Position numbers and translations under genes: made by a program
Origin: a virus
Lineage: Duplodnaviria; Heunggongvirae; Uroviricota; Caudoviricetes
Virus record (IMG/VR): IMGVR_UViG_2534681675_000028
DNA length: 34,318 bases
Strand: one strand, 5' to 3'
In this document: piece by piece, positions 12,291 through 34,318 of the stretch
Layout of the letters: every line of letters starts with the position of its first letter
Position numbering within the stretch: the stretch's first letter is position 1
Notes under the pieces: model-generated
What the model saw: the letters and a program-made list of their open reading frames with translations, nothing else
What the model was told of the DNA's origin: nothing
Database searches by the model: none

Positions 12291-12338
12291 TTAAATTTAG
12301 CACTGTTAAAAATTTAATCCTTAACCGGAGGTATATCA

Positions 12339-12533
12339 ATGTCAAACGCACAGAAAGTTATTAACGCTGAAAAATATAACGAGTGGGTGAAAAAGTTCTC
12401 AGAGCAGATTTTTAAAATTACTGGCGACGAGAATGCGGCAAAAAATGAATTAGAGCCGTGGACACCTGAAGGTGTCGCCCCAAATTATTGCTGGTGGATG
12501 TTGATCCAGTTGATGCTGCAAATGAAGCGATGA
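12339..12533 (+). CDS. Hypothetical small protein
   Basis: 64-aa ORF with GGAGG Shine-Dalgarno. Confidence 0.45.
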   Translation: MSNAQKVINAEKYNEWVKKFSEQIFKITGDENAAKNELEPWTPEGVAPNYCWWMLIQLMLQMKR

Positions 12534-12585
12534 GTTATCACAACGATTAATGTCAGGAGGCCGCCCGAAAGGGCGGTAATGAAAA

Positions 12586-15782: not shown

Positions 15783-16832
15783 GTGCGGGTATTACTTCGA
15801 CCTGTTCCGGTGCCGGAACTCGGGCTGGTGGTCCTTAAGCCGGGCCGTGAATCTATGCAGGTATTTCATAATCCCCGGGTACTGGTGGAGCCGGAACCGA
15901 AAAGCATGCGCGGTCTGCCGTCCGGAGCTGTTCCTGCCGTTCGCCAGGCGCTGGCGGAAGATAAATCATTACTGCCATTTTTCAGCGATGAGCGGGTGAT
16001 TCGTGCTGCTGGCGGCGCTGGTGCACTGTCTGACTGGCTGTTGCGTCATGTCAAATCCTGCCAGTGGCCTCATGGTGACTATCATCACAGTGAAACCGTC
16101 ATACATCGTTACGGTACCGGCGCGATGGTGTTGTGCTGGCACTGCGACAACCAGTTGCGTGACCAGACCTCCGAATCACTCGGGCAACTTGCTCATCAAA
16201 ACCTGTCGGCATGGATGATTGACGTCATACGCCACGCAATGAATGGCACACAAGAGCGGGAATTATCGCTGGCTGAATTGTACTGCTGGGCTGCTGTAAA
16301 TGATGTAGTGGATGCCATGACCGAAAATATGGCGCGTCGAATCCTGAAGCGTCCGGGTGAAAAAATCCGCTCAATATACCGCGAGAGCGACATCATACCG
16401 GGAGAACCGACAGCCACCAGCATACTGAAGCAGCGCACAAAAAATATTGCGCTACCACCTTACGCCCACCAGCAACAGAACCCACCACAGGAAAAGACGG
16501 TGGTCAGCATCGCCGTTGATCCGGAGTCTCCTGAATCTTTCATGAAGCGACCTAAACGTCGCCGTTGGGTAAATGAGAAATATACGCGCTGGGTGAAGAC
16601 TCAGCCGTGTGCGTGTTGTGGTCAACCAGCCGACGATCCCCATCACCTGATTGGTCATGGTCAGGGCGGAATGGGAACAAAGGCCCACGATATTTTTACA
16701 CTACCGCTGTGCCGGGAGCATCACAACGAACTTCATGCGGATCTGCTGGCGTTCGAAGAAAACCATGGTTCCCAGATTGATTTAATTTTTCGTTTTCTTG
16801 ATCACGCCTTTGCAACCGGCGTGCTTGGGTAA
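15783..16832 (+). CDS. DUF968-type prophage protein with C-terminal HNH-like Cys/His motif (YdfU-like by recollection)
   Basis: 349-aa ORF; GTG start with GGAGG Shine-Dalgarno; C-terminal CACCGQ…HHLIGHGQGGMGTKAHD…CREHHNELH. Confidence 0.6.
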   Translation: MRVLLRPVPVPELGLVVLKPGRESMQVFHNPRVLVEPEPKSMRGLPSGAVPAVRQALAEDKSLLPFFSDERVIRAAGGAGALSDWLLRHVKSCQWPHGDYHHSETVIHRYGTGAMVLCWHCDNQLRDQTSESLGQLAHQNLSAWMIDVIRHAMNGTQERELSLAELYCWAAVNDVVDAMTENMARRILKRPGEKIRSIYRESDIIPGEPTATSILKQRTKNIALPPYAHQQQNPPQEKTVVSIAVDPESPESFMKRPKRRRWVNEKYTRWVKTQPCACCGQPADDPHHLIGHGQGGMGTKAHDIFTLPLCREHHNELHADLLAFEENHGSQIDLIFRFLDHAFATGVLG

Positions 16833-16844
16833 AAGAGGTTACTG

Positions 16845-17216
16845 ATGCGTATAGAGTTTGTTTTGCCTTACCCGCCGACGGTGAACACCTACTGGCGACG
16901 TCATGGCAGCACATATTTTGTATCAAAAGCCGGTGAGCGTTATCGCCGTGATGTGGCGTTCATTGTTCGCCAGCAGCGGTTGAAATTAAACCTCTCCGGA
17001 AGGCTGGCGATAAAGATTATTGCAGAGCCACCGGATAAGCGCCGTCGTGACCTGGACAATATCCTGAAAGCACTGCTGGATGCGCTGACACATGCGGGGC
17101 TGCTTATAGACGACGACCAGTTTGATGAAATCAATATTGTGCATGGTCTGCCTGTTTGCGGTGGGCGACTGGGTGTGAATATATTCGTAATAAGAGGATG
17201 TAATGATGTTGCGTGA
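16845..17216 (+). CDS. rusA: Holliday junction resolvase RusA
   Basis: 123-aa ORF; YWRRHG…[22 protein letters not shown] matches RusA motifs as I recall them. Confidence 0.85.
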
Positions 17217-17577
17217 TATTCAGCTGGTTATGGAGCGGTGGGGAGCATGGGCAGCAAGTAATCATGAAGATGTAACATGGTCCTCGATAGCTGCTGGTTT
17301 TAAAGGATTAATCCCGACTAAAGTGAAATCACGTCCTCAGTGTTCTGATGATGACGCCATGATAATTTGTGGCTGTATGGCACGATTAAACAAGAATAAT
17401 CAGTATTTGCACGATTTGTTGGTGGATTATTACGTAGGTGGAATGACATTTATGGCTCTTGCACGTAAGCATAGATGTTCTGATGGGCTTATTGGTAAAA
17501 GACTTTATAAAGCTGAAGGTATTATTGAAGGAATGCTTATGGCTCTGAATGTCCGGTTAGATATGGATATGCGGTAG
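17203..17577 (+). CDS. Q: Late-gene antiterminator Q (phage 21/82-type, QuuD-like)
   Basis: 124-aa ORF; [34 protein letters not shown]…[16 protein letters not shown] matches my recollection of QuuD. Confidence 0.85.
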
Positions 17578-17670
17578 GGATATATAGTGACGAGGGTTAT
17601 GTTTTCCGTGTTTATAATTAATATGTTTATTTTTTGATGGTCATGAATTTTATGGAAGGTAAACAAAATG

Positions 17671-17699
17671 TTGCCAGGTGAATTGAAAATATTGATAAT
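17671..17699 (+). promoter_or_regulatory. Sigma70-type promoter (TTGCCA, 17-bp spacer, GATAAT) downstream of Q: candidate late promoter pR' or cargo promoter
   Basis: Direct reading: -35 at 17671-17676, -10 at 17694-17699; about 30 bp upstream of the next start codon. Confidence 0.45.
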
Positions 17700-17730
17700 C
17701 AATCATCATCATTAAATAAAAGGAGTGTTT

Positions 17731-18549
17731 ATGTGGATTGTGTTAGCACTGTCACTGTCAACTCTCAGTTGGCATAAGGTAGTGGCTTTTTCATTGTTGA
17801 CGGTGTCTGTTGTCCTGGCTGTGCTTAATGATATTATTGATTGGCCGGTGTTGTTTTTTGTTGCTACAATCGTTTTTTTTATTATTTTGAAGTTCAACTG
17901 GAAATATAACGCCTGGGCTAAATCCATATATGAAGCTGGCATAGTTTTATCAGCCATAGCATTATCTTTCCATTTATGGCCAGGGTTTCACAATCCTGTA
18001 GTGCTAAAGTCTGTCACTGTCGGACCTCAAAGCACTCCCTATACAATGTATTTTAATTTTGATAAAGCGCTGGTGCCATTTTTGTTAGTCCTGTGTACAG
18101 CTTCTTTGTTTAAAAAAGAAGTGAAATCAGAAGTGTCTTTGTGGAAATGGGGGGCTCTGTTGCTCTCTGTTCCTCTTATACTGTTTTTGGCTGTTTTTTT
18201 TGGTGGGTTAAAGCCAGAGATTCATTTTCCAGAGTGGTTGCCAGAGTTTATATTGGCTAATTTGTTTTTTGTGTCTCTGGCAGAGGAGTCATTATTTAGA
18301 GGGTATATTCAATCACGGCTATCAGAAGTGACGTCTCCATTGGTTGCGTTAATTGTGGCGTCTTTGTTGTTTGGTTTTTATCACTATTCAGGTGGTGCTT
18401 TACTTGTATTATTTGCCACGTTATCTGGTGTTGTGTATGGATTGTCATGGATGTGGAGTGGGTGCTTGTGGGTGGCAACCCTTTTCCATTTTGGTCTGAA
18501 TCTGTGTCACTTGTTATTCTTTACCTATCCATTCTTAAAACATAATTGA
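17731..18549 (+). CDS. CPBP-family (CAAX protease / Abi, PF02517-type) intramembrane metalloprotease
   Basis: 272-aa polytopic ORF with AGGAG Shine-Dalgarno; conserved motifs EExxxR (AEESLFRGY), FxxxH (FGFYHY) and HxxxN (HFGLNLCH). Confidence 0.75.
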   Translation: MWIVLALSLSTLSWHKVVAFSLLTVSVVLAVLNDIIDWPVLFFVATIVFFIILKFNWKYNAWAKSIYEAGIVLSAIALSFHLWPGFHNPVVLKSVTVGPQSTPYTMYFNFDKALVPFLLVLCTASLFKKEVKSEVSLWKWGALLLSVPLILFLAVFFGGLKPEIHFPEWLPEFILANLFFVSLAEESLFRGYIQSRLSEVTSPLVALIVASLLFGFYHYSGGALLVLFATLSGVVYGLSWMWSGCLWVATLFHFGLNLCHLLFFTYPFLKHN

Positions 18550-18688
18550 TTTTTTTCTATGGCTTTAAATTTATAACACTGAAAAATAGCAGTATGTGAC
18601 ATTTGCATGAAAAATATGCACGGCAAAGCATTTACGTACGTAAAAAATCATGTATGCTTTTAAGAGTGGTTATTTCACCGCATAGCCT

Positions 18689-18714
18689 GAACCCGCCTCT
18701 GAGCGGGTTTTTTG
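18689..18714 (+). terminator. Rho-independent terminator after the CPBP gene
   Basis: ACCCGC-CTCTGA-GCGGGT followed by TTTTTTG. Confidence 0.65.
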
Positions 18715-18836
18715 TGCCCGCAAAGTAGCGCAGTGCGTTAAATGTGCTGGTAGTTATTAATACTGGTCTTTCTGCTTGCTGGCTTTTTAGACAAGAGTTA
18801 TTGGTATGTCACGTTAACCAGAAAAGGGAAAAAGAC

Positions 18837-19034
18837 ATGCTAAAACAGCAGGATATGACCGAAACCGCCAGAGTGGTGTTTAATGAATTAAGCGTCACCG
18901 AACCGGCGACCGTCGGGGAGATTGCGCAGAATACTTACCTTTCACGCGAGCGCTGCCAGTTAATACTGACTCAGCTTGTTATGGCGGGTCTGGCAGATTA
19001 TCAGTTCGGTTGTTACAGACGCCTTCCGCAGTGA
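18837..19034 (+). CDS. Small hypothetical protein, possibly winged-helix DNA-binding
   Basis: ORF 18744-19034 trimmed to the internal ATG (MLKQQDMTET…) preceded by AAGGGAA. Confidence 0.4.
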   Translation: MLKQQDMTETARVVFNELSVTEPATVGEIAQNTYLSRERCQLILTQLVMAGLADYQFGCYRRLPQ

Positions 19035-19184
19035 AGGCTTTTTAATTTGTGGTAATGGGCGGCTGGTGGGTGTTAGCGGCACCTGCCAGCCATCTGCTCA
19101 TGCGTTGGGGTCACAAGCAAACCTCAGGCCCATCTGCTTTGCGCAAAAGCGGTATGAGCCTATCAGAGAAGTGCTTATTGATCT

Positions 19185-19734
19185 ATGGCTAATACTGTAA
19201 AAATATCCAGCTGCGAGTTAATCAACGCTGATTTCCTGGAATTTATCCAGACCTTACCGGAAAACTCTGTCGATCTGATAGTCACAGACCCGCCATACTT
19301 TAAAGTGAAGCCCGAGGGCTGGGATAACCAGTGGAAGGGCGACGATGATTACCTGAAATGGCTGGATCAGTGTCTGGCGCAGTTCTGGTGGGTATTAAAA
19401 CCCGCCGGAAGTCTTTACCTGTTCTGTGGTCATCGCCTGGCATCTGATATCGAAATCATGATGCGTGAGCGCTTTAATGTGCTGAACCACATTATCTGGG
19501 CGAAGCCGTCCGGGCGCTGGAACGGGTGCAACAAGGAAAGCCTGCGGGCGTATTTCCCGGCAACAGAGCGCATTCTGTTTGCGTCCGGGAGATTTGGTTG
19601 CCGACTTTTTCATGGGGTCAGGCTCCATAATAAAAGCAGCGCTGGCACTTGGGGGCATGGCGTTAAGCGTTGAACTTGAGTCTGAACGTTTTGAGCATAC
19701 TGCGGGTGAAATAGTTACGTTGGCAGATAATTAA
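19185..19734 (+). pseudogene. DNA N6-adenine (beta-class) methyltransferase with an apparent frameshift near 19585
   Basis: N-terminal frame has DPPY (motif IV); the +1 frame downstream reads RPGDLVADFFMGSGSIIKAALALGG (motif I, FxGxG); the two frames do not join without an indel. Confidence 0.6.
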
Positions 19735-19848
19735 ATCACTGCACAATAAGCTAATGAATTGATGTTAACTTCCCGTATTATTGGGCTACTTCGAGAGAAA
19801 GGTGCATTACATTTCAGATGTATTTCATCTCACATCCGAGGAAGCAAT

Positions 19849-19924
<76 letters not shown>

Positions 19925-19927
19925 TAT

Positions 19928-20002
<75 letters not shown>

Positions 20003-20281
20003 ACATTTGATAGAGGCGTATTGCAGCACTGGCGTATTTTTATTACGTGAGGACAGATTGTTTTTTTAGGAACTCTCAGTTTTCGGGCTATGTTTTGAGG
20101 CCAGGTTAGCCTCAGTGCTGATTTTTTACAATACCGGAATGGTGCATTATTGGTTGGGTTACGTAGTGAGCCCTATGGCAGGTACCGGTGATGCACCATT
20201 CCGATGTTGTAAACATCACTTAGAGTAAGTTATAGAACAATTTGCTACTAAGTAAAACCTGAAACCTGGGAATACATCTTT

Positions 20282-20307
20282 ACCGCCACACTTGGCGGTT
20301 TTTTTTT
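20282..20307 (+). terminator. Strong Rho-independent terminator downstream of the tRNA pair
   Basis: ACCGCC-ACACTT-GGCGGT followed by a T9 run. Confidence 0.7.
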
Positions 20308-20405
20308 ATTCTGTTTTTTCATGGCTCGCTACGGCGGCCTTTTTCATGTATACCCTGGCGGTTATTATGATGGCTTGTTTATTTGTTCATAAGAGGATTG
20401 ATACA

Positions 20406-20888
20406 GTGGTCACTTATGCTGATATCAGGGCAAAACGGGCCGAAATACTGAAAGCTAAGCAGGAATACATTCAGCGGTTGCGGGATACAGCCACAAGGCT
20501 GGTCAATGCCTATGAGTCTTCACTGGCGTTGCCGGAACTGCAATGGCGAGACATTGAGGGTGAGTTACATCCTTACGTCTATATTTGCTTCAATGGCTTC
20601 AGTGTCCGACCGGAGGATTTGCAGGTAGACCTTAGGGACGGAGTTGCGTTTAAATTATACACAGTTGTTGATGACAATCCCCGCCAGTCTGCAAGTATGG
20701 AAGTTGGTGTAAAGATTGTGCTGCTTGATGGCGATAACCTGACGATTTCAGTTAATGGTTATGGGGACAGAACATTTTCGCACGTAGATACCGATGCAAA
20801 AATTAACGAGGTATGCGAGTTCATCAAAGACAGTATTTTAATGTCGATGAATGATGTGAATTTGGCAAAGCATCTCTGCCGAAGATAG
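20406..20888 (+). CDS. Hypothetical cargo protein in the slot between the tRNAs and the lysis cassette; start uncertain
   Basis: ORF 20292-20888 in the track begins inside the terminator; GTG 20406 has an AAGAGGA Shine-Dalgarno; an alternative ATG at 20346 would add an N-terminal hydrophobic segment but has no Shine-Dalgarno. Confidence 0.4.
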   Translation: MVTYADIRAKRAEILKAKQEYIQRLRDTATRLVNAYESSLALPELQWRDIEGELHPYVYICFNGFSVRPEDLQVDLRDGVAFKLYTVVDDNPRQSASMEVGVKIVLLDGDNLTISVNGYGDRTFSHVDTDAKINEVCEFIKDSILMSMNDVNLAKHLCRR

Positions 20889-21098
20889 AAGGCAGGAGTC
20901 GTAAAAAGGAATCGTTCGAAAATCTCAGAATCACCAGGCTGCGCATTTGCGTGGCCTTTTTTGTATCCGCGCCACGCCCGGCGCATATCAAAAACCACAG
21001 AGCCTTTCAGGGGTGAGCTTACGGGATGGTCAGTGTGACTTTCTCTGTGGGCTGGTCACCCCCGGGCGCAGGCTCACCCACTAAAAGGAAAAGTCACG

Positions 21099-21524
21099 AT
21101 GTTTGGTATTTTCAAAAAGAAAACACGCAAGGCCATTACCGAAGTGAAGAAGATGGAGAACCGCGACGCAGTGGAGGCGACCGTCTGGGGTGCGTATTCC
21201 ATTGCATACGCTGACGACACCTGTGACTCGAAAGAAATCGCGGTACTGGAGAAAACCATTGCAGCACTTCCTGCCTTTGCGCCGTTCTCCGGTGAGATTG
21301 CACAAATGAGTGCAAATATCCGCGCCCGTTATGAAGCGTCGCCGCGCTCTGCCAATGCTGAAGCCCTTCGCCAGCTGGCTGATGTCGCCGGTACTGATGA
21401 CGCAGTGAATGTGCTGTGCCTGTGTCTGGATATTGCAGACCAGGATGGCATTGGGCCGGAGGAAGAAGTACAGCTCAAGAAAATTGCTCAGGCGCTTCAG
21501 TTACCGCTGGAGCAGTACCTGTGA
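21099..21524 (+). CDS. TerB-like (tellurite-resistance TerB / DjlA N-terminal domain family) protein
   Basis: 141-aa ORF; family assignment by recollection of prophage TerB-family proteins. Confidence 0.5.
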   Translation: MFGIFKKKTRKAITEVKKMENRDAVEATVWGAYSIAYADDTCDSKEIAVLEKTIAALPAFAPFSGEIAQMSANIRARYEASPRSANAEALRQLADVAGTDDAVNVLCLCLDIADQDGIGPEEEVQLKKIAQALQLPLEQYL

Positions 21525-21673
21525 AAAGTGCGCGCCTTGTACTGGCTGCCATCCTGCTGTTTCTGGTAGTGGTGGTGGATTTTACCGGACGGCTGATGTC
21601 GGTACTGGCAGATGGTGTGCTGGTGGTGATGGTGTTGGTCGTGCTCCGGCCTTTACTGCGCAAATCTGAATAA
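21521..21673 (+). CDS. Small hydrophobic protein (50 aa, two hydrophobic stretches), apparently translationally coupled to the TerB-like gene
   Basis: GTG start overlaps the TerB-like stop (GTGA); LVLAAILLFLVVVV and GVLVVMVLVVL segments; under 60 aa from its start. Confidence 0.35.
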   Translation: MKSARLVLAAILLFLVVVVDFTGRLMSVLADGVLVVMVLVVLRPLLRKSE

Positions 21674-21723
21674 CACCACGCAAAAGGCATCTGCGGGTGC
21701 CTTTGATTGGGTGTTGTTTTTAC

Positions 21724-21748
21724 GGGCCGCTGGTGGCCTTTTTTGTTT
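21724..21748 (+). terminator. Putative intrinsic terminator upstream of the holin gene
   Basis: GGCC-GCTGGT-GGCC hairpin followed by TTTTTTGTTT; preceded by a second 7-bp hairpin at 21683-21704. Confidence 0.4.
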
Positions 21749-21784
21749 CCATTATACAACGCCCGCATCTGCGAGGTGGGGGTT

Positions 21785-22000
21785 ATGAAATCCATGGACA
21801 AAATTTCAACGGGCATTGCCTATGGCACCTCCGCAGGCAGTGCTGGCTACTGGTTTTTACAGTGGCTTGATCAGGTCAGTCCGTCACAGTGGGCTGCGAT
21901 TGGTGTATTAGGGAGTCTGGTTCTGGGCTTCCTGACTTATCTGACAAATCTGTACTTCAAAATAAGAGAAGACAGAAGAAAGGCTGCGAGAGGTGAATAA
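21785..22000 (+). CDS. S: Class II holin of phage 21 type (S21-like pinholin) with dual-start motif MKSMDK
   Basis: [71 protein letters not shown] matches my recollection of S21; GAGGTG Shine-Dalgarno. Confidence 0.85.
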
Positions 22001-22497
22001 TGCCTCCATCATTACGAAAAGCCGTTGCTGCTGCTATTGGTGGCGGGGCTATTGCTATAGCATCTGTGTTAATCACTGGTCCAGGTGGTAACGATGGTCT
22101 GGAAGGTGTCAGTTACATACCATACAAAGATATTGTTGGTGTATGGACTGTATGCCACGGACACACCGGAAAAGACATCATGCTCGGTAAAACGTATACC
22201 GAAGCAGAATGCAAAGCCCTCCTGAATAAAGACCTTTCCACGGTCGCCAGACAAATTACCCCGTACATCAAAGTCGATATACCAGAAACAACGCGCGGCG
22301 CTCTTTACTCATTCGTCTATAACGTGGGTGCTGGAAATTTCAGAACATCGACTCTTCTTCGCAAAATAAACCAGGGTGATATCAAAGGCGCATGTGATCA
22401 GCTACGGCGCTGGACATACGCTGGCGGTAAGCAATGGAAAGGGCTGATGACCCGTCGTGATATTGAGCGTGAAGTCTGTTTGTGGGGGCAGCAATGA
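22000..22497 (+). CDS. R: SAR endolysin (lysozyme, R21-like) with N-terminal signal-anchor-release segment
   Basis: 165-aa ORF whose start overlaps the holin stop; hydrophobic Gly/Ala-rich N-terminus ([20 protein letters not shown]); lysozyme-like body. Confidence 0.8.
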
Positions 22498-22961
22498 GCA
22501 GAGTAACCGCGATTATCTCCGCTCTGATTATCTGCATCGTCGTCTGTCTGTCGTGGGCGGTCAATCATTACCGTGATAACGCCATCGCCTACAAAGAACA
22601 GCGTGATAAAAAAGTCAGTGAGCTGAAGCAGGCGACTGCCACCATCGCTGACATGCAGCAGCGTCAGCGTGATGTTGCTGCGCTCGATGCAAAGTACTCG
22701 AGAGAATTAGCCAATGCGCAAGCTGAAAATGAAACTCTGCGTGCTGATGTTACCGCTGGTCGTAAGCGCCTGCGGATCAACGCCACCTGTCCAGGCTCCG
22801 TGCGTGAAGCCACCGCCACCGCCCGCGTGGGCAATGATGCCAGCGTCGAACTCTCTCCAGTTGCTGGACGAAACGTTCTCGGTATCAGAGACGGAATCAT
22901 CAGCGACCAGGCAGCATTGAGAACGCTTCAGGAATATATCCGTACTCAGTGCCTGAAATAG
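22494..22961 (+). CDS. Rz: Rz i-spanin
   Basis: Start ATG overlaps the endolysin stop (ATGA); N-terminal transmembrane segment then coiled-coil-like body. Confidence 0.75.
22714..22920 (+). CDS. Rz1: Rz1 o-spanin lipoprotein embedded in the +1 frame of Rz
   Basis: [22 protein letters not shown]… has a lipobox followed by a proline-rich stretch ([10 protein letters not shown]), resembling lambda Rz1. Confidence 0.75.
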
Positions 22962-23417
22962 TTTTTTCAATGCGTTGTATCGTCGCCGTATTTCCGCATT
23001 AACAGAGACCGCAGCCCTATGGGGAGACTCCTCTGCGCGAGTGTGCGGGGATAATCAAAAACGATACACACCGGGGTTTACTGCGTTAACGGAGCGCGGC
23101 GTTGTCCCCTCATAGTCGCCTGGCCGGTGCGATGGTGGAAGAAACCGGAACACATTACAAAATGATAACAATTATCATTTTTCGGGTCCTCCTGGCGGGG
23201 TGGGCCTGTACACGGGGCGGGTCGGCGCGGAAAAAAGCGCATTTTTGTGATTTTATCGTCATCATCATCATGTATGTAAACTGTTGTTTTTAATGTAATT
23301 GATACAAAAAAGATGATGGTTGTGGCCAATTTTTGTTCGACATCTTTGTGTGGCGGCATTTCTTTACAAAAAAAACAGAATCACTTCTGTTCAGAGGGGT
23401 ATGTGGAGGAGGCGTAG

Positions 23418-23894
23418 ATGGACGGCGAGCTGAAAAATATGAAGTTAAATATTAATCAACTGGCAGCCCTTTCAGGCCTGCACCGGCAGACCGTTACCGC
23501 AAGAATGGCGGATGTTCCTCTTGCTCCGGGCAGTAATGAGAAGAAAAAACTTTATCTCCTGACGGACCTGATTACTGCGCTGCTGGCAAAAACACCATCT
23601 ACCGAAGATGAGGAGATGAATCCACACGATCGCAAGGCATGGTATCAGTCCGAGCGCGAGCGTCTTAAATTTCAGCATGAAACTGTTCAGCTTGTCCCTG
23701 TCAGTGATGTCAGGCGGTCGTTTTCCGTCGTGGTGAAAGCCATTGTGCAGATACTGGAAACCTGGCCTGACAGGCTGGAGAGGGACAGGGGGTGGACTGC
23801 ATCACAACTGAACGAAGTGCAGATCGTTGTTGATGAGATCCGTGACACGCTGGAAAAGGCAGTGATTGCCTGCTGTGATGAGGCTGATATGTGA
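23418..23894 (+). CDS. Terminase small subunit
   Basis: 158-aa ORF with GGAGGAGG Shine-Dalgarno, immediately upstream of and overlapping the large terminase. Confidence 0.65.
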   Translation: MDGELKNMKLNINQLAALSGLHRQTVTARMADVPLAPGSNEKKKLYLLTDLITALLAKTPSTEDEEMNPHDRKAWYQSERERLKFQHETVQLVPVSDVRRSFSVVVKAIVQILETWPDRLERDRGWTASQLNEVQIVVDEIRDTLEKAVIACCDEADM

Positions 23895-26014
23895 ATCCGG
23901 TTAACGAGTGCCATAGCCGCGCATCCGATATCTGGCGCGAAGTGGCCTCGCTGTTTCGCCCGCCTGGCCGGTTACCAGTAGCGGAAGCCATCAGGCGTTA
24001 TATGCGGGTACCACGGGGAGCCAACACTTCAGGTCCGTGGGAGTCATCGCTGACGCCCTATATGATTGACCCCATTAATACATTATCAGCCCGTGAATAT
24101 GACGCGGTGGTGTTTGTCGGACCGGCGCGAACCGGGAAAACCGAAGGGCTGATTGATGGCTGGATTGTGTACGGCATCATCTGTGATCCGGCGGATATGC
24201 TGGTGGTGCAGATGACTGAGACGAAGGCGCGTGAGCATTCCAGAACGCGTCTTTCCAGGACGTTTCGCCACAGTCCGGAGGTCAGTAAGCGCCTCAGTCC
24301 TTCCCGTAATGACAACAACGTCCACGACAAAATGTTTCTTGACGGCTCATTCCTGAAAATTGGCTGGCCGTCGATCACCGTATTTTCCTCCTCGGATTAC
24401 CGTCGTGTGGCGCTGACGGATTATGACCGTTTTCCTGAGAACGTCGACGGTGAAGGGGATGCCTTCACGCTGGCATCAAAGCGTACCACCACCTTTATGT
24501 CCTCGGGGATGACCCTGGTCGAAAGTTCGCCCGGGCGGGATATCACCGATACCAAATGGCGTTGTGGTGGCGCACATGAGGCACCGCCAACAACGGGGAT
24601 CCTGTCACTGTATAACCGGGGAGACCGCCGCCGGTGGTACTGGCCGTGTCCGCACTGCGGGGAATATTTTCAGCCGGTGATGGATAACATGACCGGTTAC
24701 CGGAATAACCCTGATTTTGTGGCTGCCGGGCAGGCGGCCCGCCTGATGTGTCCGCACTGCCGCGGCCTGATTGCTCCGGAACAGAAGCGTGAACTGAATA
24801 ACCAGGGGATCTGGCTGCGGGAAGGCGAACGGGCAGCGGCGGATGGCAGTATTACCGGAACCCCTCGAAATTCCAGAATAGCAAGTTTCTGGATGGAGGG
24901 GCCGGCAGCGGCGTTTCAGACCTGGGAACAACTGATTTTTAAGCTGCTGGCGGCAGAAGAAGAGTATGAGCGAACCGGCAGTGAAGAGACCCTGAAAGCG
25001 GTGGTAAACACCGATATCGGACGACCCTATCTGCCCCGTTCAGCCACGGAACAGCGTAAAAGTGAACTGCTTGAACAGCGTGCCGAGCCGTTTCCCCGGC
25101 GATCTGTGCCGGATGGTGTGCGTTTTATTGAGGCAACGGTTGACGTACAGGGCGGTAAAAATCGCCGTTTTGTTGTGCAGATCACCGGATACGGAGAACA
25201 GGGGGAACGCTGGATTGTTGATCGCTACAACATCCGGCATTCACTGCGCTGCAGTCCCAATGGTGAAAGTCTGCCGGTTGATCCGGCGGCATATCCGGAG
25301 GACTGGGATTTGTTGCTGACGGATGTGCTCCATAAAACATGGCCGCTGGCTTCTGATCCGGATGTGCGCATGCGTCTGATGGCCATGGCGGTGGATACGG
25401 GAGGGGAAGCCGGGGTGACAGATAATGCCTATCGTTTCTGGCGTCGTTGCCGGAGTGACGGACTGAGCAACAGGGTGTTTCTGTTCAAGGGGGATGGTCT
25501 TCGCCGTGACAGGCTGATTAACCGTACCTTCCCGGATAATACCGGCAGAAGTGCCCGCCGTGCCAGAGCCAGTGGCGATGTCGCGCTGTGGCTGGTTCAG
25601 ACGGATGCGTTTAAGGACCGTGTAAATAATGCCCTGTGGCGTGACACACCAGGGCCGAACTATATCCACTTTCCCGACTGGCTGGGGCGGTGGTTTTACG
25701 ATGAGCTGACCTATGAAGAGCGCGGCAGTGACGGAAAATGGCGAAAACCGGGCAGGGGCGCTAACGAGGCGTTTGACCTGCTGGTGTATGCGGATGCGCT
25801 TGCCGTTCTGCATGGTTACGAAAAGATCCGCTGGCCCTCCGCACCGGACTGGGCACAGCGGGAAACGTGGCTCGTTTTTCCGCAGGAGCGTTCTGGTGAA
25901 ACGGCATCCCCGGAACTGACGGCCGGGGCAGAAAAACGCCGTCGTCGGAAGAAAAAACTGCGGACGGAGCGTGCGGAAGATAATCCATGGATAACATCAG
26001 GAGGCTGGTTGTGA
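23891..26014 (+). CDS. Terminase large subunit (lambda gpA family)
   Basis: 707-aa ORF; Walker A GPARTGKT; size and position as lambda A. Confidence 0.85.
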   Translation: MNPVNECHSRASDIWREVASLFRPPGRLPVAEAIRRYMRVPRGANTSGPWESSLTPYMIDPINTLSAREYDAVVFVGPARTGKTEGLIDGWIVYGIICDPADMLVVQMTETKAREHSRTRLSRTFRHSPEVSKRLSPSRNDNNVHDKMFLDGSFLKIGWPSITVFSSSDYRRVALTDYDRFPENVDGEGDAFTLASKRTTTFMSSGMTLVESSPGRDITDTKWRCGGAHEAPPTTGILSLYNRGDRRRWYWPCPHCGEYFQPVMDNMTGYRNNPDFVAAGQAARLMCPHCRGLIAPEQKRELNNQGIWLREGERAAADGSITGTPRNSRIASFWMEGPAAAFQTWEQLIFKLLAAEEEYERTGSEETLKAVVNTDIGRPYLPRSATEQRKSELLEQRAEPFPRRSVPDGVRFIEATVDVQGGKNRRFVVQITGYGEQGERWIVDRYNIRHSLRCSPNGESLPVDPAAYPEDWDLLLTDVLHKTWPLASDPDVRMRLMAMAVDTGGEAGVTDNAYRFWRRCRSDGLSNRVFLFKGDGLRRDRLINRTFPDNTGRSARRARASGDVALWLVQTDAFKDRVNNALWRDTPGPNYIHFPDWLGRWFYDELTYEERGSDGKWRKPGRGANEAFDLLVYADALAVLHGYEKIRWPSAPDWAQRETWLVFPQERSGETASPELTAGAEKRRRRKKKLRTERAEDNPWITSGGWL

Positions 26015-26223
26015 GCACAGAAGAAGCCAGAGAAATGATACAGCGGTACCGTGAAGCGGAAATGGCCGTACTGGAGGGGAAGTCTGTCACCTTCAACGGA
26101 CAGCAACTGACGCTGGAAAGCCTTTCTCAGATCCGCGCCGGACGTCAGGAGTGGGAACGCAGGCTTGCCGCGATGGTGAGCCGCAGGCGGGGAAAACCGG
26201 GATTTAAACTGGCGAGGTTTTAA
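26011..26223 (+). CDS. Head-tail joining protein (lambda gpW-like)
   Basis: GTG 26011 with AGGAGG Shine-Dalgarno, overlapping the terminase stop; about 70 aa ending RRRGKPGF…, like lambda W; the track ATG at 25987 lacks a Shine-Dalgarno. Confidence 0.55.
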   Translation: MSTEEAREMIQRYREAEMAVLEGKSVTFNGQQLTLESLSQIRAGRQEWERRLAAMVSRRRGKPGFKLARF

Positions 26224-27725
26224 TGGCAATTATTGATGATGTGATAGGCGTGTTCTCTCCAGGCTGGAAAGCGACCAGACTGCGTTCAAGGGCGTTAATC
26301 ATGGCCTATGAGGCGGTGAAACCGACCCGGACACATAAAGCCCGGCGTGAAAATCGATCTGCTGATCAACTCAGTAAATATGGCGCGGTTTCCCTGCGGG
26401 AGCAGGCCCGTTTTCTGGATATCAATCATGACCTGGTGATTGGTGTGTTTGACAAGCTTGAAGAGCGGGTGATTGGTGCCAGAGGAATTACTGTGGATCC
26501 TCAGCCATTACGAAAAAACGGGGAAATGGCGGCAGAGCTGGCTGCGGATATCCGCCGGTTGTGGGCTGAATGGTCCGTGAGTCCCGATGTGACAGGGCAG
26601 TATACCCGTCCCGTGCTTGAGCGTTTACTGCTGCGGACCTGGCTGCGGGATGGTGAAGTGTTTGCGCAGATGGTCAGTGGTGCGGGAAACGGTCTGGAAC
26701 GGACGGCGGGAGTGCCATTCTGGCTTGAAGCGATGGAGCCGGATTTTGTTCCTATGCGCAGTGATGAATCCGCCGGGCTGAATCAGGGGGTTTTTCTTGA
26801 TGAGTGGGGCAGACCGAAAAAATATCTGGTTTATAAAAATTATCCGGTCAGTGGTCGGCAGAGTGATACGAAAGAAATCGCCGCCGGAAAAATGATCCAC
26901 CTGAAGTTCACTCGTCGTCTGCATCAGACGCGAGGCTCATCCATGTTATCGGGGGTGCTGATGCGGATCAGTGCCCTTAAGGAGTATGAGGATGCGGAAC
27001 TGACAGCGGCGCGTATTGCTGCGGCGCTGGGACTGTATATCCGTAAAGGTGACGGACAGGACTATGAAGATCCGGGGAGCAAAGAAACCGAGCGGGAAGT
27101 CCATATCACCCCGGGAATTATTTATGACGATTTGCGCAAGGGCGAGGATATCGGCATGGTCAAATCCGATCGTCCCAATCCCAACCTTGAAACTTTCCGC
27201 AACGGCCAGTTGCGTGCAGTGGCAGCTGGCAGTCGTCTGAGCTTTTCCAGTGCGGCGCGTAACTATAACGGCACCTACAGCGCCCAGCGGCAGGAGCTGG
27301 TCGAGTCCACGGATGGTTACCTGATCCTGCAGGACTGTTTTATTGGTGCGGTAACCCGCCCGGTGTACCGGACATGGCTGAATATGGTGGTTGCGGCAGG
27401 TCTGCTGAAAATTCCGGCGGATGTGGAGATGAAGACGCTATATAACGCGACGTATTCCGGTCCGGTGATGCCGTGGATTGACCCGGTTAAGGAGGCTGAA
27501 GCCTGGCGGATACAGATCCGGGGTGGTGCCGCGACGGAATCCGACTGGATCCGCGCAGGCGGGCGCAACCCGGATGAGGTCAAACGTCGCCGTAAGGCGG
27601 AAACTGAGGAAAACCGCAGGCTGGGGCTGGTCTTTGATACTGACCCCGCCAACGACAAAGGAGGCAACAGTGCCGGAACTGAACAACAGCGTCAGCAGGC
27701 CACCGACAGCCAGCATGAAGAATAA
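26223..27725 (+). CDS. Portal protein (lambda gpB family)
   Basis: 500-aa ORF after the W-like gene; start overlaps the W stop (TAATG). Confidence 0.8.
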   Translation: MAIIDDVIGVFSPGWKATRLRSRALIMAYEAVKPTRTHKARRENRSADQLSKYGAVSLREQARFLDINHDLVIGVFDKLEERVIGARGITVDPQPLRKNGEMAAELAADIRRLWAEWSVSPDVTGQYTRPVLERLLLRTWLRDGEVFAQMVSGAGNGLERTAGVPFWLEAMEPDFVPMRSDESAGLNQGVFLDEWGRPKKYLVYKNYPVSGRQSDTKEIAAGKMIHLKFTRRLHQTRGSSMLSGVLMRISALKEYEDAELTAARIAAALGLYIRKGDGQDYEDPGSKETEREVHITPGIIYDDLRKGEDIGMVKSDRPNPNLETFRNGQLRAVAAGSRLSFSSAARNYNGTYSAQRQELVESTDGYLILQDCFIGAVTRPVYRTWLNMVVAAGLLKIPADVEMKTLYNATYSGPVMPWIDPVKEAEAWRIQIRGGAATESDWIRAGGRNPDEVKRRRKAETEENRRLGLVFDTDPANDKGGNSAGTEQQRQQATDSQHEE

Positions 27726-29694
27726 ATCCTGGTTCAGGATGCAGGCGGGTGGTCAGGGTGAGGCGGATATTTATATTTATGACGAGATTGGTTTCTGGGG
27801 CGTCACCGCGAAGCAGTTTGTCAGCGATATGAATGCCCTGGGTGATATCACCCACATTAATCTCCACATCAACTCACCGGGTGGCGATGTCTTTGAAGGC
27901 ATCGCCATTTTTAATGCCCTGAAAAATCACGGTGCGGCCATTACCGTGTATGTGGATGGCGTTGCCGCCTCGATGGCATCCCTGATTGCGATGGCCGGTG
28001 ACACGGTCATTATGCCGGAAAATGCCTTCATGATGATCCATAAACCCTGGGGGATCAGCGGTGGTGATGCGGAGAAAATGCGCACTTATGCCGAACGTCT
28101 GGACAAACTTGAGTCGGTTATGGTGCCGGTATATGCGCAGAAAACCGGAAAAACTACCGATGAAATTGCCGCCATGCTGGCGGATGAGACCTGGATGTCC
28201 GGTGCCGAGTGTCTGGCACACGGATTTGCTGACCAGGTGACGCCAGCCGTTAAGGCAATGGCATGTATTCAGTCAACACGTACAGAGGAATTTAAAAAGA
28301 TGCCGGAATCCATCCGAAATATGATCACGCAGCCACACAACAGTGCCCCGCGTGATACCACAGTGACAATCCCTGCACCGGCGGTAACAGAACCATCACC
28401 GGTACCGGCAGTGTCTGATGAGGCGACCATTCGCGCCCGCGTTATGGCTGAGCAGAAAGCCCGCATGTCAGGCATTAACGATCTGTTTGCCATGTTTGGC
28501 GGGCGCTATCAGGCGCTTCAGGCGCAGTGTGTGGCCGATCCTGACTGTTCGCTGGAAATGGCCCGCGAGCGCCTTCTGAATGAAATGGGCAAGGAGTCCT
28601 CGCCGACCAACAAAAACACACCGGCCCATATTTATGCCGGAAACGGCAATTTTGTGGGAGACGGGATCCGCCAGGCGATGCTGGCCCGTGCCGGATATGA
28701 AAATGTCGAGAAGGATAATGTCTATAACGGGATGACCCTGCGTGAATGGGCTCGCATGTCACTGACCGAGCGTGGTATTGGGGTGGCCAGTTATAACCCC
28801 ATGCAGATGGTCGGGCTGGCGCTGACGCACAGCACCTCTGATTTTGGCAATATTCTGCTGGATGTGTCGAACAAGGGGCTGATCCAGGGCTGGGAGGAAT
28901 CAGAAGAAACCTTCCAGAAGTGGACCCGTAAGGGACGCCTGTCAGACTTCAAAACAGCGTATCGCGTGGGGATGGGCGGTTTTGGTTCTCTGCGTCAGGT
29001 TCGTGAAGGGGCGGAGTATAAATACATCACCACCTCAGATCGCAAGGAGACCATTGCTCTGGCCACTTACGGGGAGATTTTCTCCATCACCCGCCAGGCC
29101 ATTATCAATGATGACCTGAATATGCTGGTTGACGTGCCGATGAAGATGGGGCGTGCGGCGAAGGCAACGATTGGTGACCTGGTTTACAAGGTGCTGACGG
29201 ATAACCCGAAACTGTCAGACGGTAAGGCGCTGTTCCATGCCGATCACAAAAATATTGCCACCGGCGGGATCTCCGTTTCCGGGCTGGATGCGGCCCGTCA
29301 GATGATGCGCCTGCAGAAAGAAGGCGATCGCGCCCTGAATATCCGTCCGGCCTTTATGCTGGTGCCGGTGTCACTGGAGACGGTGGCGAACCAGACCATC
29401 AAATCGGCCAGTGTGAAAGGGGCGGATGCAAACGCCGGTGTCATTAACCCGATCCAGAACTTTGCCGAAGTAATTGCGGAAGCGCGTCTTGATGCGGCAG
29501 ATCCGAAAACCTGGTACCTGGCTGCGGCACAGGGCACCGACACCATTGAAGTGGCCTGGCTCGATGGTGTGGACACCCCCTACATTGACCAGCAGGAAGG
29601 TTTCACCACTGACGGTATCGCCACAAAAATCCGTATTGATGCCGGTGTGGCACCACTTGACTGGCGCGGGCTGGTGCGTTCGTCGGTGGCCTGA
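27670..29694 (+). CDS. Prohead protease (ClpP/S14-like) fused to scaffold and major capsid protein
   Basis: GTG start with AGGAGG Shine-Dalgarno; N-terminal ClpP-like region (INSPGGDV…GVAASMASLIAMAGD…MMIHKP); long C-terminal region in the capsid position. Confidence 0.7.
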   Translation: MPELNNSVSRPPTASMKNKSWFRMQAGGQGEADIYIYDEIGFWGVTAKQFVSDMNALGDITHINLHINSPGGDVFEGIAIFNALKNHGAAITVYVDGVAASMASLIAMAGDTVIMPENAFMMIHKPWGISGGDAEKMRTYAERLDKLESVMVPVYAQKTGKTTDEIAAMLADETWMSGAECLAHGFADQVTPAVKAMACIQSTRTEEFKKMPESIRNMITQPHNSAPRDTTVTIPAPAVTEPSPVPAVSDEATIRARVMAEQKARMSGINDLFAMFGGRYQALQAQCVADPDCSLEMARERLLNEMGKESSPTNKNTPAHIYAGNGNFVGDGIRQAMLARAGYENVEKDNVYNGMTLREWARMSLTERGIGVASYNPMQMVGLALTHSTSDFGNILLDVSNKGLIQGWEESEETFQKWTRKGRLSDFKTAYRVGMGGFGSLRQVREGAEYKYITTSDRKETIALATYGEIFSITRQAIINDDLNMLVDVPMKMGRAAKATIGDLVYKVLTDNPKLSDGKALFHADHKNIATGGISVSGLDAARQMMRLQKEGDRALNIRPAFMLVPVSLETVANQTIKSASVKGADANAGVINPIQNFAEVIAEARLDAADPKTWYLAAAQGTDTIEVAWLDGVDTPYIDQQEGFTTDGIATKIRIDAGVAPLDWRGLVRSSVA

Positions 29695-29716
29695 TAACCG
29701 CGTTATCACAATCACT

Positions 29717-29737
29717 GCCCGAAAGGGCTTTTTTTAT
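29717..29737 (+). terminator. Rho-independent terminator after the capsid gene
   Basis: GCCC-GAAA-GGGC hairpin followed by a T7 run. Confidence 0.55.
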
Positions 29738-29780
29738 GCCTGAAAACAGCCCCCCGGGGGCTGTCCGGAGAGACAGCATT

Positions 29781-30107
29781 ATGGCTAAAAATTTTGTACA
29801 GGACGGCACCACCATTGAGCTGGTGAATGCCGGGGATCAGACCATTCTGAGCGGTGCCGCTGTGGTGGTTGGCAGCATGGTGGCAGTGACCATTACCGAT
29901 ATTCCTGCCGGGAAGACTGGTGACGGGTTCGCCGAAGGCGTGTTCCTGCTGCCCAAACAGTCTGCCGACGATATTCAGGCCGGTGTGGCGGTTTATCTGA
30001 AGGACGGGACTGTGCAGCCTGCCGCAGACGGTGCAGTGGCGGCGGGAATGGCATGGGAGCATGCGCCGTCAGGCACCACCACGGTGGCGGTTAAAATCAA
30101 TGCCTGA
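29781..30107 (+). CDS. Small head protein, possibly decoration/DUF2190-like
   Basis: ORF 29736-30107 trimmed to the ATG at 29781 (GGAGAG Shine-Dalgarno); Gly/Ala/Val-rich beta-type sequence; position after the capsid gene. Confidence 0.45.
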   Translation: MAKNFVQDGTTIELVNAGDQTILSGAAVVVGSMVAVTITDIPAGKTGDGFAEGVFLLPKQSADDIQAGVAVYLKDGTVQPAADGAVAAGMAWEHAPSGTTTVAVKINA

Positions 30108-30381
30108 TCTGTTTGCGCGAATGTGCAGCCGGATGGACCTGGCGACCGTACGCATGATGGGGAAAACGGCGGAGATTAACGGCGTAGTGTATGACGTGAT
30201 ACCGGAGTATGAGTCTGCGGATATGGGGGCGCTTTCCGGCAGTCAGTTGTCACTGGTGGTGTTTTCAGCGCAGTACCGGCCGGCCCGCGATGATGTGGTT
30301 GTGTTTGACGGTCGCTCACTGGTGGTGACCCGTTATGACACGTACAACGGTAATCCCCGGATTTTTGTCGAACAGGAATAA
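30100..30381 (+). CDS. Head-tail connector/head completion protein (gpFII-like)
   Basis: Start overlaps the upstream stop (ATGCCTGA); size and position as lambda FII; weak resemblance by eye. Confidence 0.45.
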   Translation: MPDLFARMCSRMDLATVRMMGKTAEINGVVYDVIPEYESADMGALSGSQLSLVVFSAQYRPARDDVVVFDGRSLVVTRYDTYNGNPRIFVEQE

Positions 30382-30383
30382 GT

Positions 30384-31007
30384 ATGGCGATAAAAGGTCT
30401 GGCGCAGGCCATGAAAAATCTGGATGCGATTAACCGCCGTGCCGTTCCCCGGGCTGCCGCCACGACGCTTAACCGTGTGGCGGAGTCCATCATCGCGAAA
30501 ACGGCCTCTTCGGTTGCCCGGGAGCTGGCGGTCCCACACCGTCTCATCCGTGAGCGTATCCGCCTGCAACGGGCCAGCGCAGACAGGGTTTATGCGAAGG
30601 TCATCATCAACACCGGTAATCTGCCCGCCATAAAACTGGGGACGGCCAGCGTGCGGCTTTCCCGCAGAAAGCGGCGAAAGAAAGGTGAGCGTTCGGTCAC
30701 GAAAGGCGGTAGCAGTGTGCTGATTGTCGGGAAACGACGGATCCCGAATGCTTTTATTACCCGGCTGGAAAATGGCCGGTGGCATGTGATGCAGCGTATG
30801 CCGTGGGCATCATCGTCCACCGGTGCGGACAGCAAAGGGAGGACGAAACGCCACCGTCTGCCGATCGAAGTGGTGAAGATTCCGACTGCCGGACCGCTGG
30901 CAGAAACCTTTGAACGTGAACGGGACCGGATGTACCGGGAAAAATTACCGGTGCAGATGATGAAAGCCATGACGCATCAGTTACGCCTGGTGCTGAAAAG
31001 AAAATGA
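30384..31007 (+). CDS. Minor tail protein Z-like
   Basis: 207-aa ORF immediately upstream of the U-like gene, as in lambda. Confidence 0.6.
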   Translation: MAIKGLAQAMKNLDAINRRAVPRAAATTLNRVAESIIAKTASSVARELAVPHRLIRERIRLQRASADRVYAKVIINTGNLPAIKLGTASVRLSRRKRRKKGERSVTKGGSSVLIVGKRRIPNAFITRLENGRWHVMQRMPWASSSTGADSKGRTKRHRLPIEVVKIPTAGPLAETFERERDRMYREKLPVQMMKAMTHQLRLVLKRK

Positions 31008-31019
31008 CAGGGAGGGTGT

Positions 31020-31418
31020 ATGAAACACCGTGAAATACGGGCGGCAGTTCTGTCTGCCCTGAAAGAAAATATTTCTGAGCGGGTGAGCTGGTTTGACGGC
31101 CGCCCGGTTTTTATTGATGAACAGGAACTACCTGCTGTTGCTGTTTACCTGACTGATGCGTCTGCTGCTGACGAGTTCGTTGATGAGGGGACCTGGGAGG
31201 CGACACTGCATATTGAAGTTTTTCTCAGGGCAAAAGAACCGGACTCGGCACTGGATATGTGGATGGAAGAGAAAATCCTTCCTGCGCTGGAGGCGGTTCC
31301 CGGCCTCAGTGCGTTACTGCTGAAGATGAATCTTCAGGGGTATGACTACCGCCGGGATGATGAGTTTATGATGTGGGGATCGGCAGATCTCCTGTGGAAA
31401 ATTACCTACGAGATGTGA
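31020..31418 (+). CDS. U: Tail terminator protein U
   Basis: [14 protein letters not shown]…PAVAVYLT…LHIEVFL…GYDYRRDD…ITYEM closely parallels lambda gpU. Confidence 0.9.
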
Positions 31419-31425
31419 GGACGAT

Positions 31426-32175
31426 ATGGCAATACCAAATCCTCTTGAGCCGGTGAAAGGTTCCGGCACCACACTATGGGTGTACACCGGCACTGGTGAT
31501 GCTTATGCAAACCCGCTGTCAGACGATGAGTGGACGCGCCTGGCAAAAATAAAGGATCTGACACCCGGCGAGATGACGGCAGAATCCTACGATGATAACT
31601 ATCTGGATGATGATGATGCGGACTGGGTATCCACCGGGCAGGGGCAGAAATCAGCAGGGGATACCAGTTTTACGCTGGCCTGGAAGCCCGGCGAGAAAGG
31701 GCAGCGCGATTTGATCGCCTGGTTTGACAGCAGTGAGAGCCGAGCCTACAAAATCCGTTTCCCGAACGGCACGGTGGATGTGTTCCGTGGCTGGGTGAGC
31801 GCCATTGGTAAAGCGGTGACCGCCAAAGAGGTGATCACCCGTACCGTGAAGATCACCAATATCGGCCGTCCGTCGCTGGCGGAAGATCAGGGGGACATCA
31901 CGCCGGTCACCGGTATTACCGTGACGCCATCAACGGGCAATGTGGCAAAAGGTCAGAATATCACCCTGACTGTGGCCGTTCAGCCGGAAGGGGCGACGGA
32001 TAAAACCTTCCGCGCCACGTCAGCGAATCAGAATTTCGCCACCATTACCGTGAAAGGGAACACGATCACGGTGAAAGGTGTTGCGGCCGGTAAAGCGCAG
32101 ATCCCTGTGGTGACCGGAAATGGTCAGTTTGCGGCAGTGGCAGAAATTACCGTCACGGATGGTGTTGCGGGTTAA
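31426..32175 (+). CDS. V: Major tail protein V with C-terminal Ig-like domain
   Basis: [25 protein letters not shown]…[17 protein letters not shown]…AAVAEITVT closely parallels lambda gpV. Confidence 0.9.
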
Positions 32176-32195
32176 GCTGAGGGAGTGATAAAAGC

Positions 32196-32627
32196 ATGTT
32201 TCTGAAAACAGAACAATTTGAATATAACGGCGTGTCCGTCACCCTTTCCGAACTGTCTGCGCTGCAGCGTATTGAGCATCTTGCCCTCCTGAAACGGCGG
32301 GCAGAAGAGGCTGAAGCCAGCGGCAACCTGCAGGTGAGCGTGGAAGACCTTGTCAGAACCGGGGCGTTTCTGGTGGCGATGTCCCTGTGGCATAACCATC
32401 CACAGAAAACGGAGTCACCGTCAATGAATGAGGCTGTGATGCAGATTGAGCAGGAAGTCCTGACCACCTGGCCTGCTGATGCCATTGCCCGGGCGGAAGA
32501 CGTGGTGTTGCGTCTGTCCGGGATGAGTGAGCCTGTTCATGTGGATACGGATATCACCGAAGTGGCGAAAAATAATGCGCTTACTGATGATGATTTTTCT
32601 GCGGGAAAGTCTTCGACGGCGAGCTGA
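32196..32627 (+). CDS. G: Tail assembly chaperone G
   Basis: MFLKTEQFEYNGVSVTLSELSALQRIEHLAL… closely parallels lambda gpG. Confidence 0.9.
   Translation: MFLKTEQFEYNGVSVTLSELSALQRIEHLALLKRRAEEAEASGNLQVSVEDLVRTGAFLVAMSLWHNHPQKTESPSMNEAVMQIEQEVLTTWPADAIARAEDVVLRLSGMSEPVHVDTDITEVAKNNALTDDDFSAGKSSTAS
32603..32609 (+). other. Programmed -1 ribosomal frameshift slippery heptamer GGGAAAG (G to GT)
   Basis: gcG GGA AAG lies in the G frame 18 nt before the G stop; the -1 frame continues as VFDGELNFALRLAREMGRPDWR…, lambda T-like. Confidence 0.85.
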
Positions 32628-33058
32628 ATTTTGCCCTCAGACTGGCGCGTGAGATGGGGAGGCCTGACTGGCGCACCATGCTTGCCGGGATGACATCCAC
32701 CGAATATGCCGACTGGCACCGTTTTTACCGCACGCATTATTTTCAGGATACCCAGCTGGATATGCATTTTTCCGGGCTGATGTACGCCGTACTCAGCCTG
32801 TTTTTTTGCGATCCGGATATGCATCCGGCGGATTTCAGTCTGCTTGCACCCCGACGTGATGATGAGCAGACGGAGATGCCGGATGAGGACGATATGCTGA
32901 TGCGGAAAGCGGCAGGACTTTCTGGTGGTGTCCGCTTTGGGGCTGACGGGAAGGAAATCGTTACGGTCAGTGATGACATGCGGAGCAGTACAGAGGATGA
33001 AGCCATGCTGATGATGGTGTCTGAGGGAATTCCAGGAGGTGTACGCTATGGCGGGTAA
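32610..33058 (+). CDS. T: T portion of the G-T frameshift fusion tail assembly chaperone
   Basis: -1 frame open from the slippery site to the stop at 33056-33058; sequence parallels lambda gpT. Confidence 0.85.
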
Positions 33059-34318
33059 TTTTGCCGATCTGACAGCTGTTCTTACACTGGATTCAACCCG
33101 TTTTTCTGAAGAGGCTGCACGGGTAAAGAAAGAACTGGGTGAAACCAGTGACCTTGCGGATTTGATGGCCGGGCGTGTCAGCCAGTCTTTTAAGAAACAG
33201 GCCACTGCCGTTGAACAGGGCCTGAGCCGTCAGGCGCTGGCTGCACAAAAAGCCGGGATTTCCGTCGGGCAGTATAAAGCGGCCATGCGTACCCTGCCAG
33301 CACAGTTTACGGATATCGCCACGCAGCTTGCCGGTGGTCAGAATCCCTGGCTTATTCTGCTGCAACAGGGCGGTCAGGTGAAGGACGCCTTCGGCGGGAT
33401 GCTCCCCATGTTCAGGGGGCTTGCCGGTGCGATCACCCTGCCGATGGTCGGGGTCACCTCGCTGGCGGTGGCGACAGGTGCGCTGGCGTATGCCTGGTAC
33501 CAGGGGGATTCCACGCTTTCAGCGTTTAATAAAACCCTGGTTCTTTCCGGTAATCAGTCCGGACTGGCTGCCGATCGCATGCTGACGCTCTCCAGAGCCG
33601 GACAGGCAGCAGGGCTGACGTTTAACCAGGCGAGTGAGTCACTGGCAGCCCTGGTGAATGCCGGTGTGCGTGGTGGTGAACAGTTTGATGCCATCAACCA
33701 GAGTGTGGCGCGTTTTGCTTCTGTATCCGGTGTGGAAGTGGACAAGGTTGCAGAGGCTTTGGAAAGCTGACCACCGACCCGACGTCGGGACTGATGGCTA
33801 TGGCGCGCCAGTTCCGTAACGTGACGGCAGAGCAGATTGCGTATGTTGCGCAGCTGCAGCGTTCGGGTGATGAGGCAGGGGCCTTACAGGCGGCGAACGA
33901 TATCGCCACAAAAGGCTTTGATGAGCAGACCCGTCGCCTGAAAGAAAACATGGGGACGCTGGAAACCTGGGCGGATAAAACCGGGAAGGCATTCAAATTG
34001 ATGTGGGATGCCATCCTGGATATCGGTCGTCCTGAATCCTCAGCGGATATGCTCGCCAGTGCGCAGAAGGCATTTGATGAGGCGGATAAAAAATGGCAGT
34101 GGTACCAGAGCCGGAGTCAGCGCCGGGGAAAGACCTCCTCTTTCCGTGCCAACCTTCAGGGTGCATGGGATGACCGTGAAAATGCCCGTCTGGGGCTGGC
34201 GGCAGCCACGCTGCAGTCGGATATGGAAAAAGCCGGTGAACTGGTGGCAAGGGACCGGGCTGAGCGTGAGGCGTCACAGCTGAAGTATACCGGAGAGGCG
34301 CAGAAGGCGTATGAGCGC
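33048..34318 (+). CDS. H: Tail tape measure protein (lambda gpH-like), with an apparent 1-nt deletion at 33759; runs off the window
   Basis: ATG 33048 with AGGAGG Shine-Dalgarno; …QALAAQKAGISVGQYKAAMRTLPAQFTDIATQLAGGQNPWLILLQQGG… parallels lambda H; frame breaks at GCTTTGG, then continues in the +1 frame (LTTDPTSGLMAMARQF…) to the window end. Confidence 0.8.

Follow-up and report, generated by a model that had tools for sequence, protein, structure and literature searches.

The late region of the prophage and its tape-measure gene

The window, the whole 34,318-nt stretch of DNA that was analysed, is a lambdoid E. coli prophage in which an integrase gene (2157-3176) is followed by early, lysis and head genes, and then by Z, U, V, G, T and the start of H (Table 1). 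Its last base is also the last base of AEZI02000026.1 (546,598 nt), a contig of the draft assembly GCA_000194175.2, of which the window forms the final 34 kb; drafts of the AEZI accession range were presumably produced by a combination of 454 and Illumina sequencing. Immediately upstream of the tape-measure gene are the tail assembly chaperone genes G (32196-32627) and T (32654-33058). A lambda-type -1 slippery heptamer, GGGAAAG, is located at 32603-32609 near the 3' end of gene G, and the programmed frameshift of the G/GT pair looks intact from its sequence. At the opposite end of the window is an IS3-family element, which reaches about 15-25 times the single-copy depth in related strains and is thus a high-copy insertion sequence in this lineage. 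In the sequencing runs X25 and X26, one contig has 21 letters (GATTTCTGCACCCTCAAATCA) in place of 221 nt at 12331-12553 and another matches the window; the difference reflects either a small polymorphic cassette or a paralogue within the early region.

Table 1. Features of the window, and matching copies of the prophage in other assemblies (all positions in window coordinates)
Feature	Positions	Strand	Basis or observation
IS3-family element: orfA (HTH_Tnp_1), orfB (rve)	1-1320	-	Domain matches
Tail assembly chaperone genes G and T	32196-33058	+	ORFs; Pfam Phage_TAC_2, Phage_tail_T; intact
5' fragment of lambda gpH-like tape-measure gene	33048-33770	+	240 codons and premature TGA
Stretch common to several lambdoid prophages per genome	33419-34318		Contig depths in related strains; contig ends within it
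Frameshift site, T3 (T4 in every relative)	33758-33760	+	Alignments with N96, 06-00048 and 08-00022; run contigs; sister assemblies
Continuation of tape-measure frame, -1/+2 relative to 5' fragment	33761-34318	+	Open up to the end of contig and window
Second private difference	34121	+	C in window; all resolved copies of this prophage have A
Copy in GCA_037486725.1 (L018; 11 further similar places)	16223-34318 (18,096 nt)		Extra T at 33758; A for C at 34121
Copy in GCA_053046425.1 (L019; 3 further similar places)	16223-34318		Extra T at 33758; A for C at 34121
Copy in GCA_036681285.1 (L017; 5.19-Mb contig)	16256-34318, two alignment pieces		Extra T; A at 34121; mismatch at 22780, at the overlap of the pieces
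Copy in GCA_054591655.1 (L020)	16223-33834 (17,612 nt)		Extra T only
Copy in GCA_037486345.1 (L012; 13 further similar places)	From 29654 on		Extra T; A at 34121
Copy in GCA_054591655.1 (L013)	From 29654 on		Extra T

The tape-measure frame starts with the ATG at 33048 (the first possible start being a GTG at 33039) and is closed by a TGA at 33768-33770, giving a product of 240 residues (P0002) with the C-terminus ...VDKVAEALES*. This product aligns to residues 1-238 of intact 870-aa relatives and matches Pfam TMP_2 (PF06791, E=3.6e-59) over positions 2-179 of the 208-position profile; the frameshift truncates the domain, which in an intact relative spans positions 2-207. The downstream frame translates from 33761 as ...KLTTDPTSGLMAMARQF..., also written ...KLTTDPTSGLMAMARQFRNVTAEQIAYVAQLQR..., and aligns to residues about 250-424 of the intact protein; its earliest in-frame ATGs are at 33794 and 33800. 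In window coordinates, codons start at 0 mod 3 in the upstream part and at 2 mod 3 in the downstream part. A single uninterrupted frame of about 850-870 codons is absent from the window, the TGA standing within it; an intact frame of 870 aa is present in N96, 06-00048 and the sister loci L007-L011 and L016-L018. The Tape_meas_lam_C domain (PF09718), found in N96 (P0003) and in L016-L018, belongs to a region past the end of the window.

At the site of the break, the window reads GCTTTGG (33756-33762; GCAGAGGCTTTGGAAAGCTGA at 33750-33770), with a run of three Ts, and the three nearest complete-genome relatives (N96, 06-00048 and 08-00022) read GCTTTTGG. Every relative compared has TTTT, so that one T is missing from the window. 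In an alignment of 132 nt, this one-base gap is the sole difference of the window from two of the three nearest complete-genome relatives. The original prediction, of a lambda H-like tape-measure gene broken at GCTTTGG by the loss of a single base from a T run and resuming downstream in the +1 frame, agrees on most points with these results: the sequence and the ORF translation contain the break, the window has TTT where its relatives have TTTT, and the identity of the gene is supported both by the TMP_2 match and by comparison of the intact sister protein with lambda gpH. The frame does resume, remaining open to the end of the window, but the shift is -1/+2 and not +1.

Lambda gpH (NP_040595.1) is encoded at the same gene position, after V, G and T, and both it and this lineage have the Pfam domains TMP_2 and Tape_meas_lam_C. 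The intact sister protein of strain N96 (P0003) and lambda gpH have 85% identity across 870 alignment columns, this lineage differing by an 11-residue insertion near the N-terminus and by divergence at about residues 330-410. The residues AEAFGKLTTD that had been attributed to lambda at the break point are indeed there, lambda gpH reading VDKVAEAFGKLTTDPTSGL at the aligned position. Lambda, with the codons GCC TTC at the break, lacks a T run there, and the run of four Ts is thus a character of this prophage lineage. The window copy differs further in being split after residue 238 by the missing T.

Distribution of the shortened T run

Sister assemblies, which are independent NCBI assemblies, were found by exact look-up of the T protein and the portal protein of the window; the T protein is identical in other assemblies. 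In the sister assemblies, the same prophage copy is continuous from unique DNA into the tape-measure gene. TTTT is present in L007-L013 and L016-L020, and every complete sister copy encodes a tape-measure protein of 870 aa, with M, L, K and I downstream; the intact tape-measure protein (P0018) is present on 8 contigs. The exact 240-aa product is recorded, in a collection of 153 billion gene positions, on AEZI02000026.1 only. Because sister copies identical over about 18 kb have TTTT, TTT is not a lineage trait; judged from these sequences, the allele is private to one draft contig and is not inherited within the prophage lineage. The same lesion in independent assemblies or reads of the lineage, by which a genuine pseudogene would be recognised, was not found.

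The site was examined with a 63-mer spanning it in 63 complete E. coli genomes, where the TTT form was found at none of 96 places; all 96 were matched at 98.4% identity, corresponding to the TTTT form. TTTT was also found in clean contigs of all 12 runs examined, and the Logan contigs of near-identical strains (X25-27, X42 and X3) all have TTTT, with the copies merged; run contigs mostly merge three or four paralogous copies and drop minority variants, and so cannot alone speak for this copy. Unique segments of this prophage were not found in the raw-read runs X23, X24, X43 and X44 of the same studies. Of two 2011 runs considered as candidate source samples, X15 has no unique part of the prophage, and in X42 the unique part is present and the tape-measure stretch merged. 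The truncated rexA-like product, tried as a clade marker, had no exact match, its gene start probably having been called differently.

TTT words were searched for with a 61-nt stretch, nearly all 31-mers of which are TTT-specific. Such 31-mers were found only in runs X61, X62 and X63 (both sampled words) and in X64 (one word). X61 and X63 are highly fragmented, at 76,205 and 16,339 contig records, respectively, and have numerous further single-base deletions over this kilobase. The samples of these two noisy runs are also represented by clean runs (X66 and X67), which have TTTT at full depth; thus, TTT also arises as platform noise at this site.

The contig end and other homopolymers

The frameshift site is 560 nt from the end of AEZI02000026.1 and lies in the multicopy stretch of Table 1, which in related strains has about 2.7-4 times the depth of neighbouring single-copy prophage DNA: 111.6 versus 40.8 in X25, 177.7 versus 45.6 in X3, and 60.9 versus about 19-23 in X42. 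The raised depth indicates that this tape-measure segment is common to three or four prophages per genome, and it is because of this that the contig ends inside the tape-measure gene.

At the second private difference, the C of the window encodes Arg (in ...SQRRGK...) and A encodes Ser. A is the base in N96, L007, L009-L012 and L016-L019, and C is found also in merged multicopy contigs of X1-X3 and X25. That the window has the base of merged contigs where resolved copies have A suggests that paralogous prophage copies have been blended into the final few hundred bases of the contig. The window keeps the bases of its own copy at 33567 (G) and 33724 (T), and the contig appears to shift from a copy-specific to a paralogue-blended consensus somewhere between 33724 and 34121, an interval within which the T run at 33758 falls. 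The two private differences both lie in the terminal 561 nt of the compared 18,096 nt, for which the probability under random placement is about 0.001.

Among the 305 homopolymers of at least 4 nt in 16223-34318, only the run at 33758 differs from the sister assemblies. N96, which is 99.8% identical to the window over the late region, has only three indels relative to it in 18839-34318: T9 in the window and T8 in N96 at 20299, A8 and A7 at 23368, and T3 and T4 at the present site. The T9 and A8 of the window agree exactly with Illumina-type contigs of X25-27, and long single-copy contigs of these runs have zero mismatches to the window. At 20299 and 23368, both near gene starts, N96 thus stands apart from the window and X25-27, and a discrepancy on the N96 side or real variation is more likely there. 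The G11 tract at 12850-12860 lies within coding sequence. Independent Illumina-type contigs have G12 there in X3 and X27 and, at low depth, G13 in X25 and X26, which shows the length of the tract to be truly variable and not a mistake restricted to this assembly. Two accessory genes of the prophage contain stop codons that are shared with sister strains and are spanned by contigs with zero mismatches.

These observations bear on a further suggestion of the original prediction, that an artefact at the T run would support sequencing error as the cause of the other homopolymer disruptions. That suggestion fails, since the length of the G11 tract differs between independent runs and since Illumina-type contigs have the same T9 and A8. 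The T run at 33758 gives no grounds for treating other oddities of the window as sequencing noise: both the G11 tract and the two accessory genes split by nonsense mutations recur in independent data.

Origin and significance of the missing base

The missing T had been predicted to be either a real defect or an artefact, a framing that holds, and the evidence favours the latter. With a probability of about 0.8, the missing base would be an error in the consensus where a draft contig ends, and not a mutation of the bacterium; the case is strong but circumstantial. A consensus slip within a repeat of three or four copies, at a contig end and beside a paralogue-derived base, is an expected kind of error. 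Few copy-specific reads, or mixed reads from paralogous copies, may have been available for the last few hundred bases, and the consensus would have taken a one-base undercall in the T4 run together with the base of a paralogue at 34121. The real gene would probably be an intact 870-codon tape measure of the lambda gpH type, as in the sister strains, and the tail module of the prophage would not be broken at this point. Three considerations count against an artefact. Some copy-specific reads were in use near the site, since the contig keeps its own haplotype up to 33724. Real decay is known from this prophage, namely in the two accessory genes with shared stop codons. In addition, the accuracy of the assembly elsewhere, including the correct T9 and A8 runs, means that a platform-wide homopolymer problem is not evident, and a run of four Ts is a weak site for error.

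A real lesion in the isolate, with a private frameshift and a paralogous copy carrying TTT taken together, is unlikely. Slightly less probable by itself is a frameshift private to the strain, in which one T has truly been lost and a 240-aa N-terminal fragment of gpH is made. Such a frameshift is what the deposited sequence shows, in an assembly that is error-free where checked against sister strains outside the contig end and in a prophage of which two accessory genes already contain nonsense mutations shared with sister strains; in E. coli strains rich in prophages, lambdoid prophages disabled by a single frameshift are frequently encountered, for example in the prophage pool of O157 Sakai. 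However, the allele is absent from all sister assemblies, complete genomes and clean run contigs, it is one of only two differences in 18 kb, both of them close to the contig end and in a repeat, and the matching single-copy contigs have no private SNPs, so that a private indel in one gene is unlikely beforehand. The more specific proposition that the deletion is real, very recent and the first disabling change, the 18-kb late region being otherwise identical to functional-looking sister copies, is correspondingly improbable.

Much less probable is a chimeric contig end, in which the last ~600 nt would come from the tape-measure gene of a paralogous prophage that truly carries TTT. The C at 34121 is the paralogue state, and a switch of copies between 33724 and 34121 is plausible, but the merged multicopy contigs of sister strains have only TTTT and no clean run contains the TTT 31-mers, with the proviso that contigs can drop minority variants. 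Programmed recoding, by which slippage of the ribosome or of RNA polymerase at the T run would yield a full-length tape measure, has a negligible probability and was rejected for lack of both conservation and a slippery motif at the shift point: beyond the openness of both frames on either side of the site nothing speaks for it, every relative has one continuous frame in place of the two-frame layout, the -1 shift required at GCU UUG has no X XXY YYZ heptamer (GCT TTG GAA AGC TGA), three Ts are far too few for slippage in transcription, and the true programmed site of the module, GGGAAAG in G/T, is elsewhere.

On the preferred reading of a consensus error, the frameshift is probably absent from the organism, and as a matter of quality control the prophage should not be scored as tail-defective on this evidence. 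If the deletion were real, the 240-aa fragment would be without most of the protein, including the Tape_meas_lam_C domain, with at best a restart product from the ATG at 33794 or 33800. There would be no tail initiator or length ruler, and, by analogy with lambda gpH, filled heads without tails would be expected. Replication, DNA packaging and cell lysis would still be possible, and tails would form only with the tape measure of a co-resident lambdoid prophage. The tape measure would then have to come from the two or three other lambdoid prophages of the genome that share this gene segment, and the strain would offer a natural test of complementation between prophages, or of gene conversion as a means of repair; the lesion would otherwise be a case of ordinary prophage decay.

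The setting resembles that of the Sp prophage pool of E. coli O157:H7 Sakai, where several near-identical lambdoid prophages are likewise present in one genome, morphogenesis genes commonly carry single frameshifts or IS insertions, and complementation or recombination between paralogues can occur. Finished genomes confirm the lesions of the Sakai prophages, which members of a lineage have in common; the present one is absent from every sister strain. Parallels are also found among draft errors at contig ends and homopolymers, such as the indels of pyrosequencing, Ion Torrent and nanopore data and the merging of repeats. The present case differs in that the affected run has no more than 4 nt and in that longer homopolymers of this contig are correct. 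In other respects the site has the features of this class: a one-base homopolymer change private to one draft, a multicopy repeat setting 560 nt from a contig end with the base of a paralogue nearby, and the same TTT words appearing as noise in error-prone runs of other samples.
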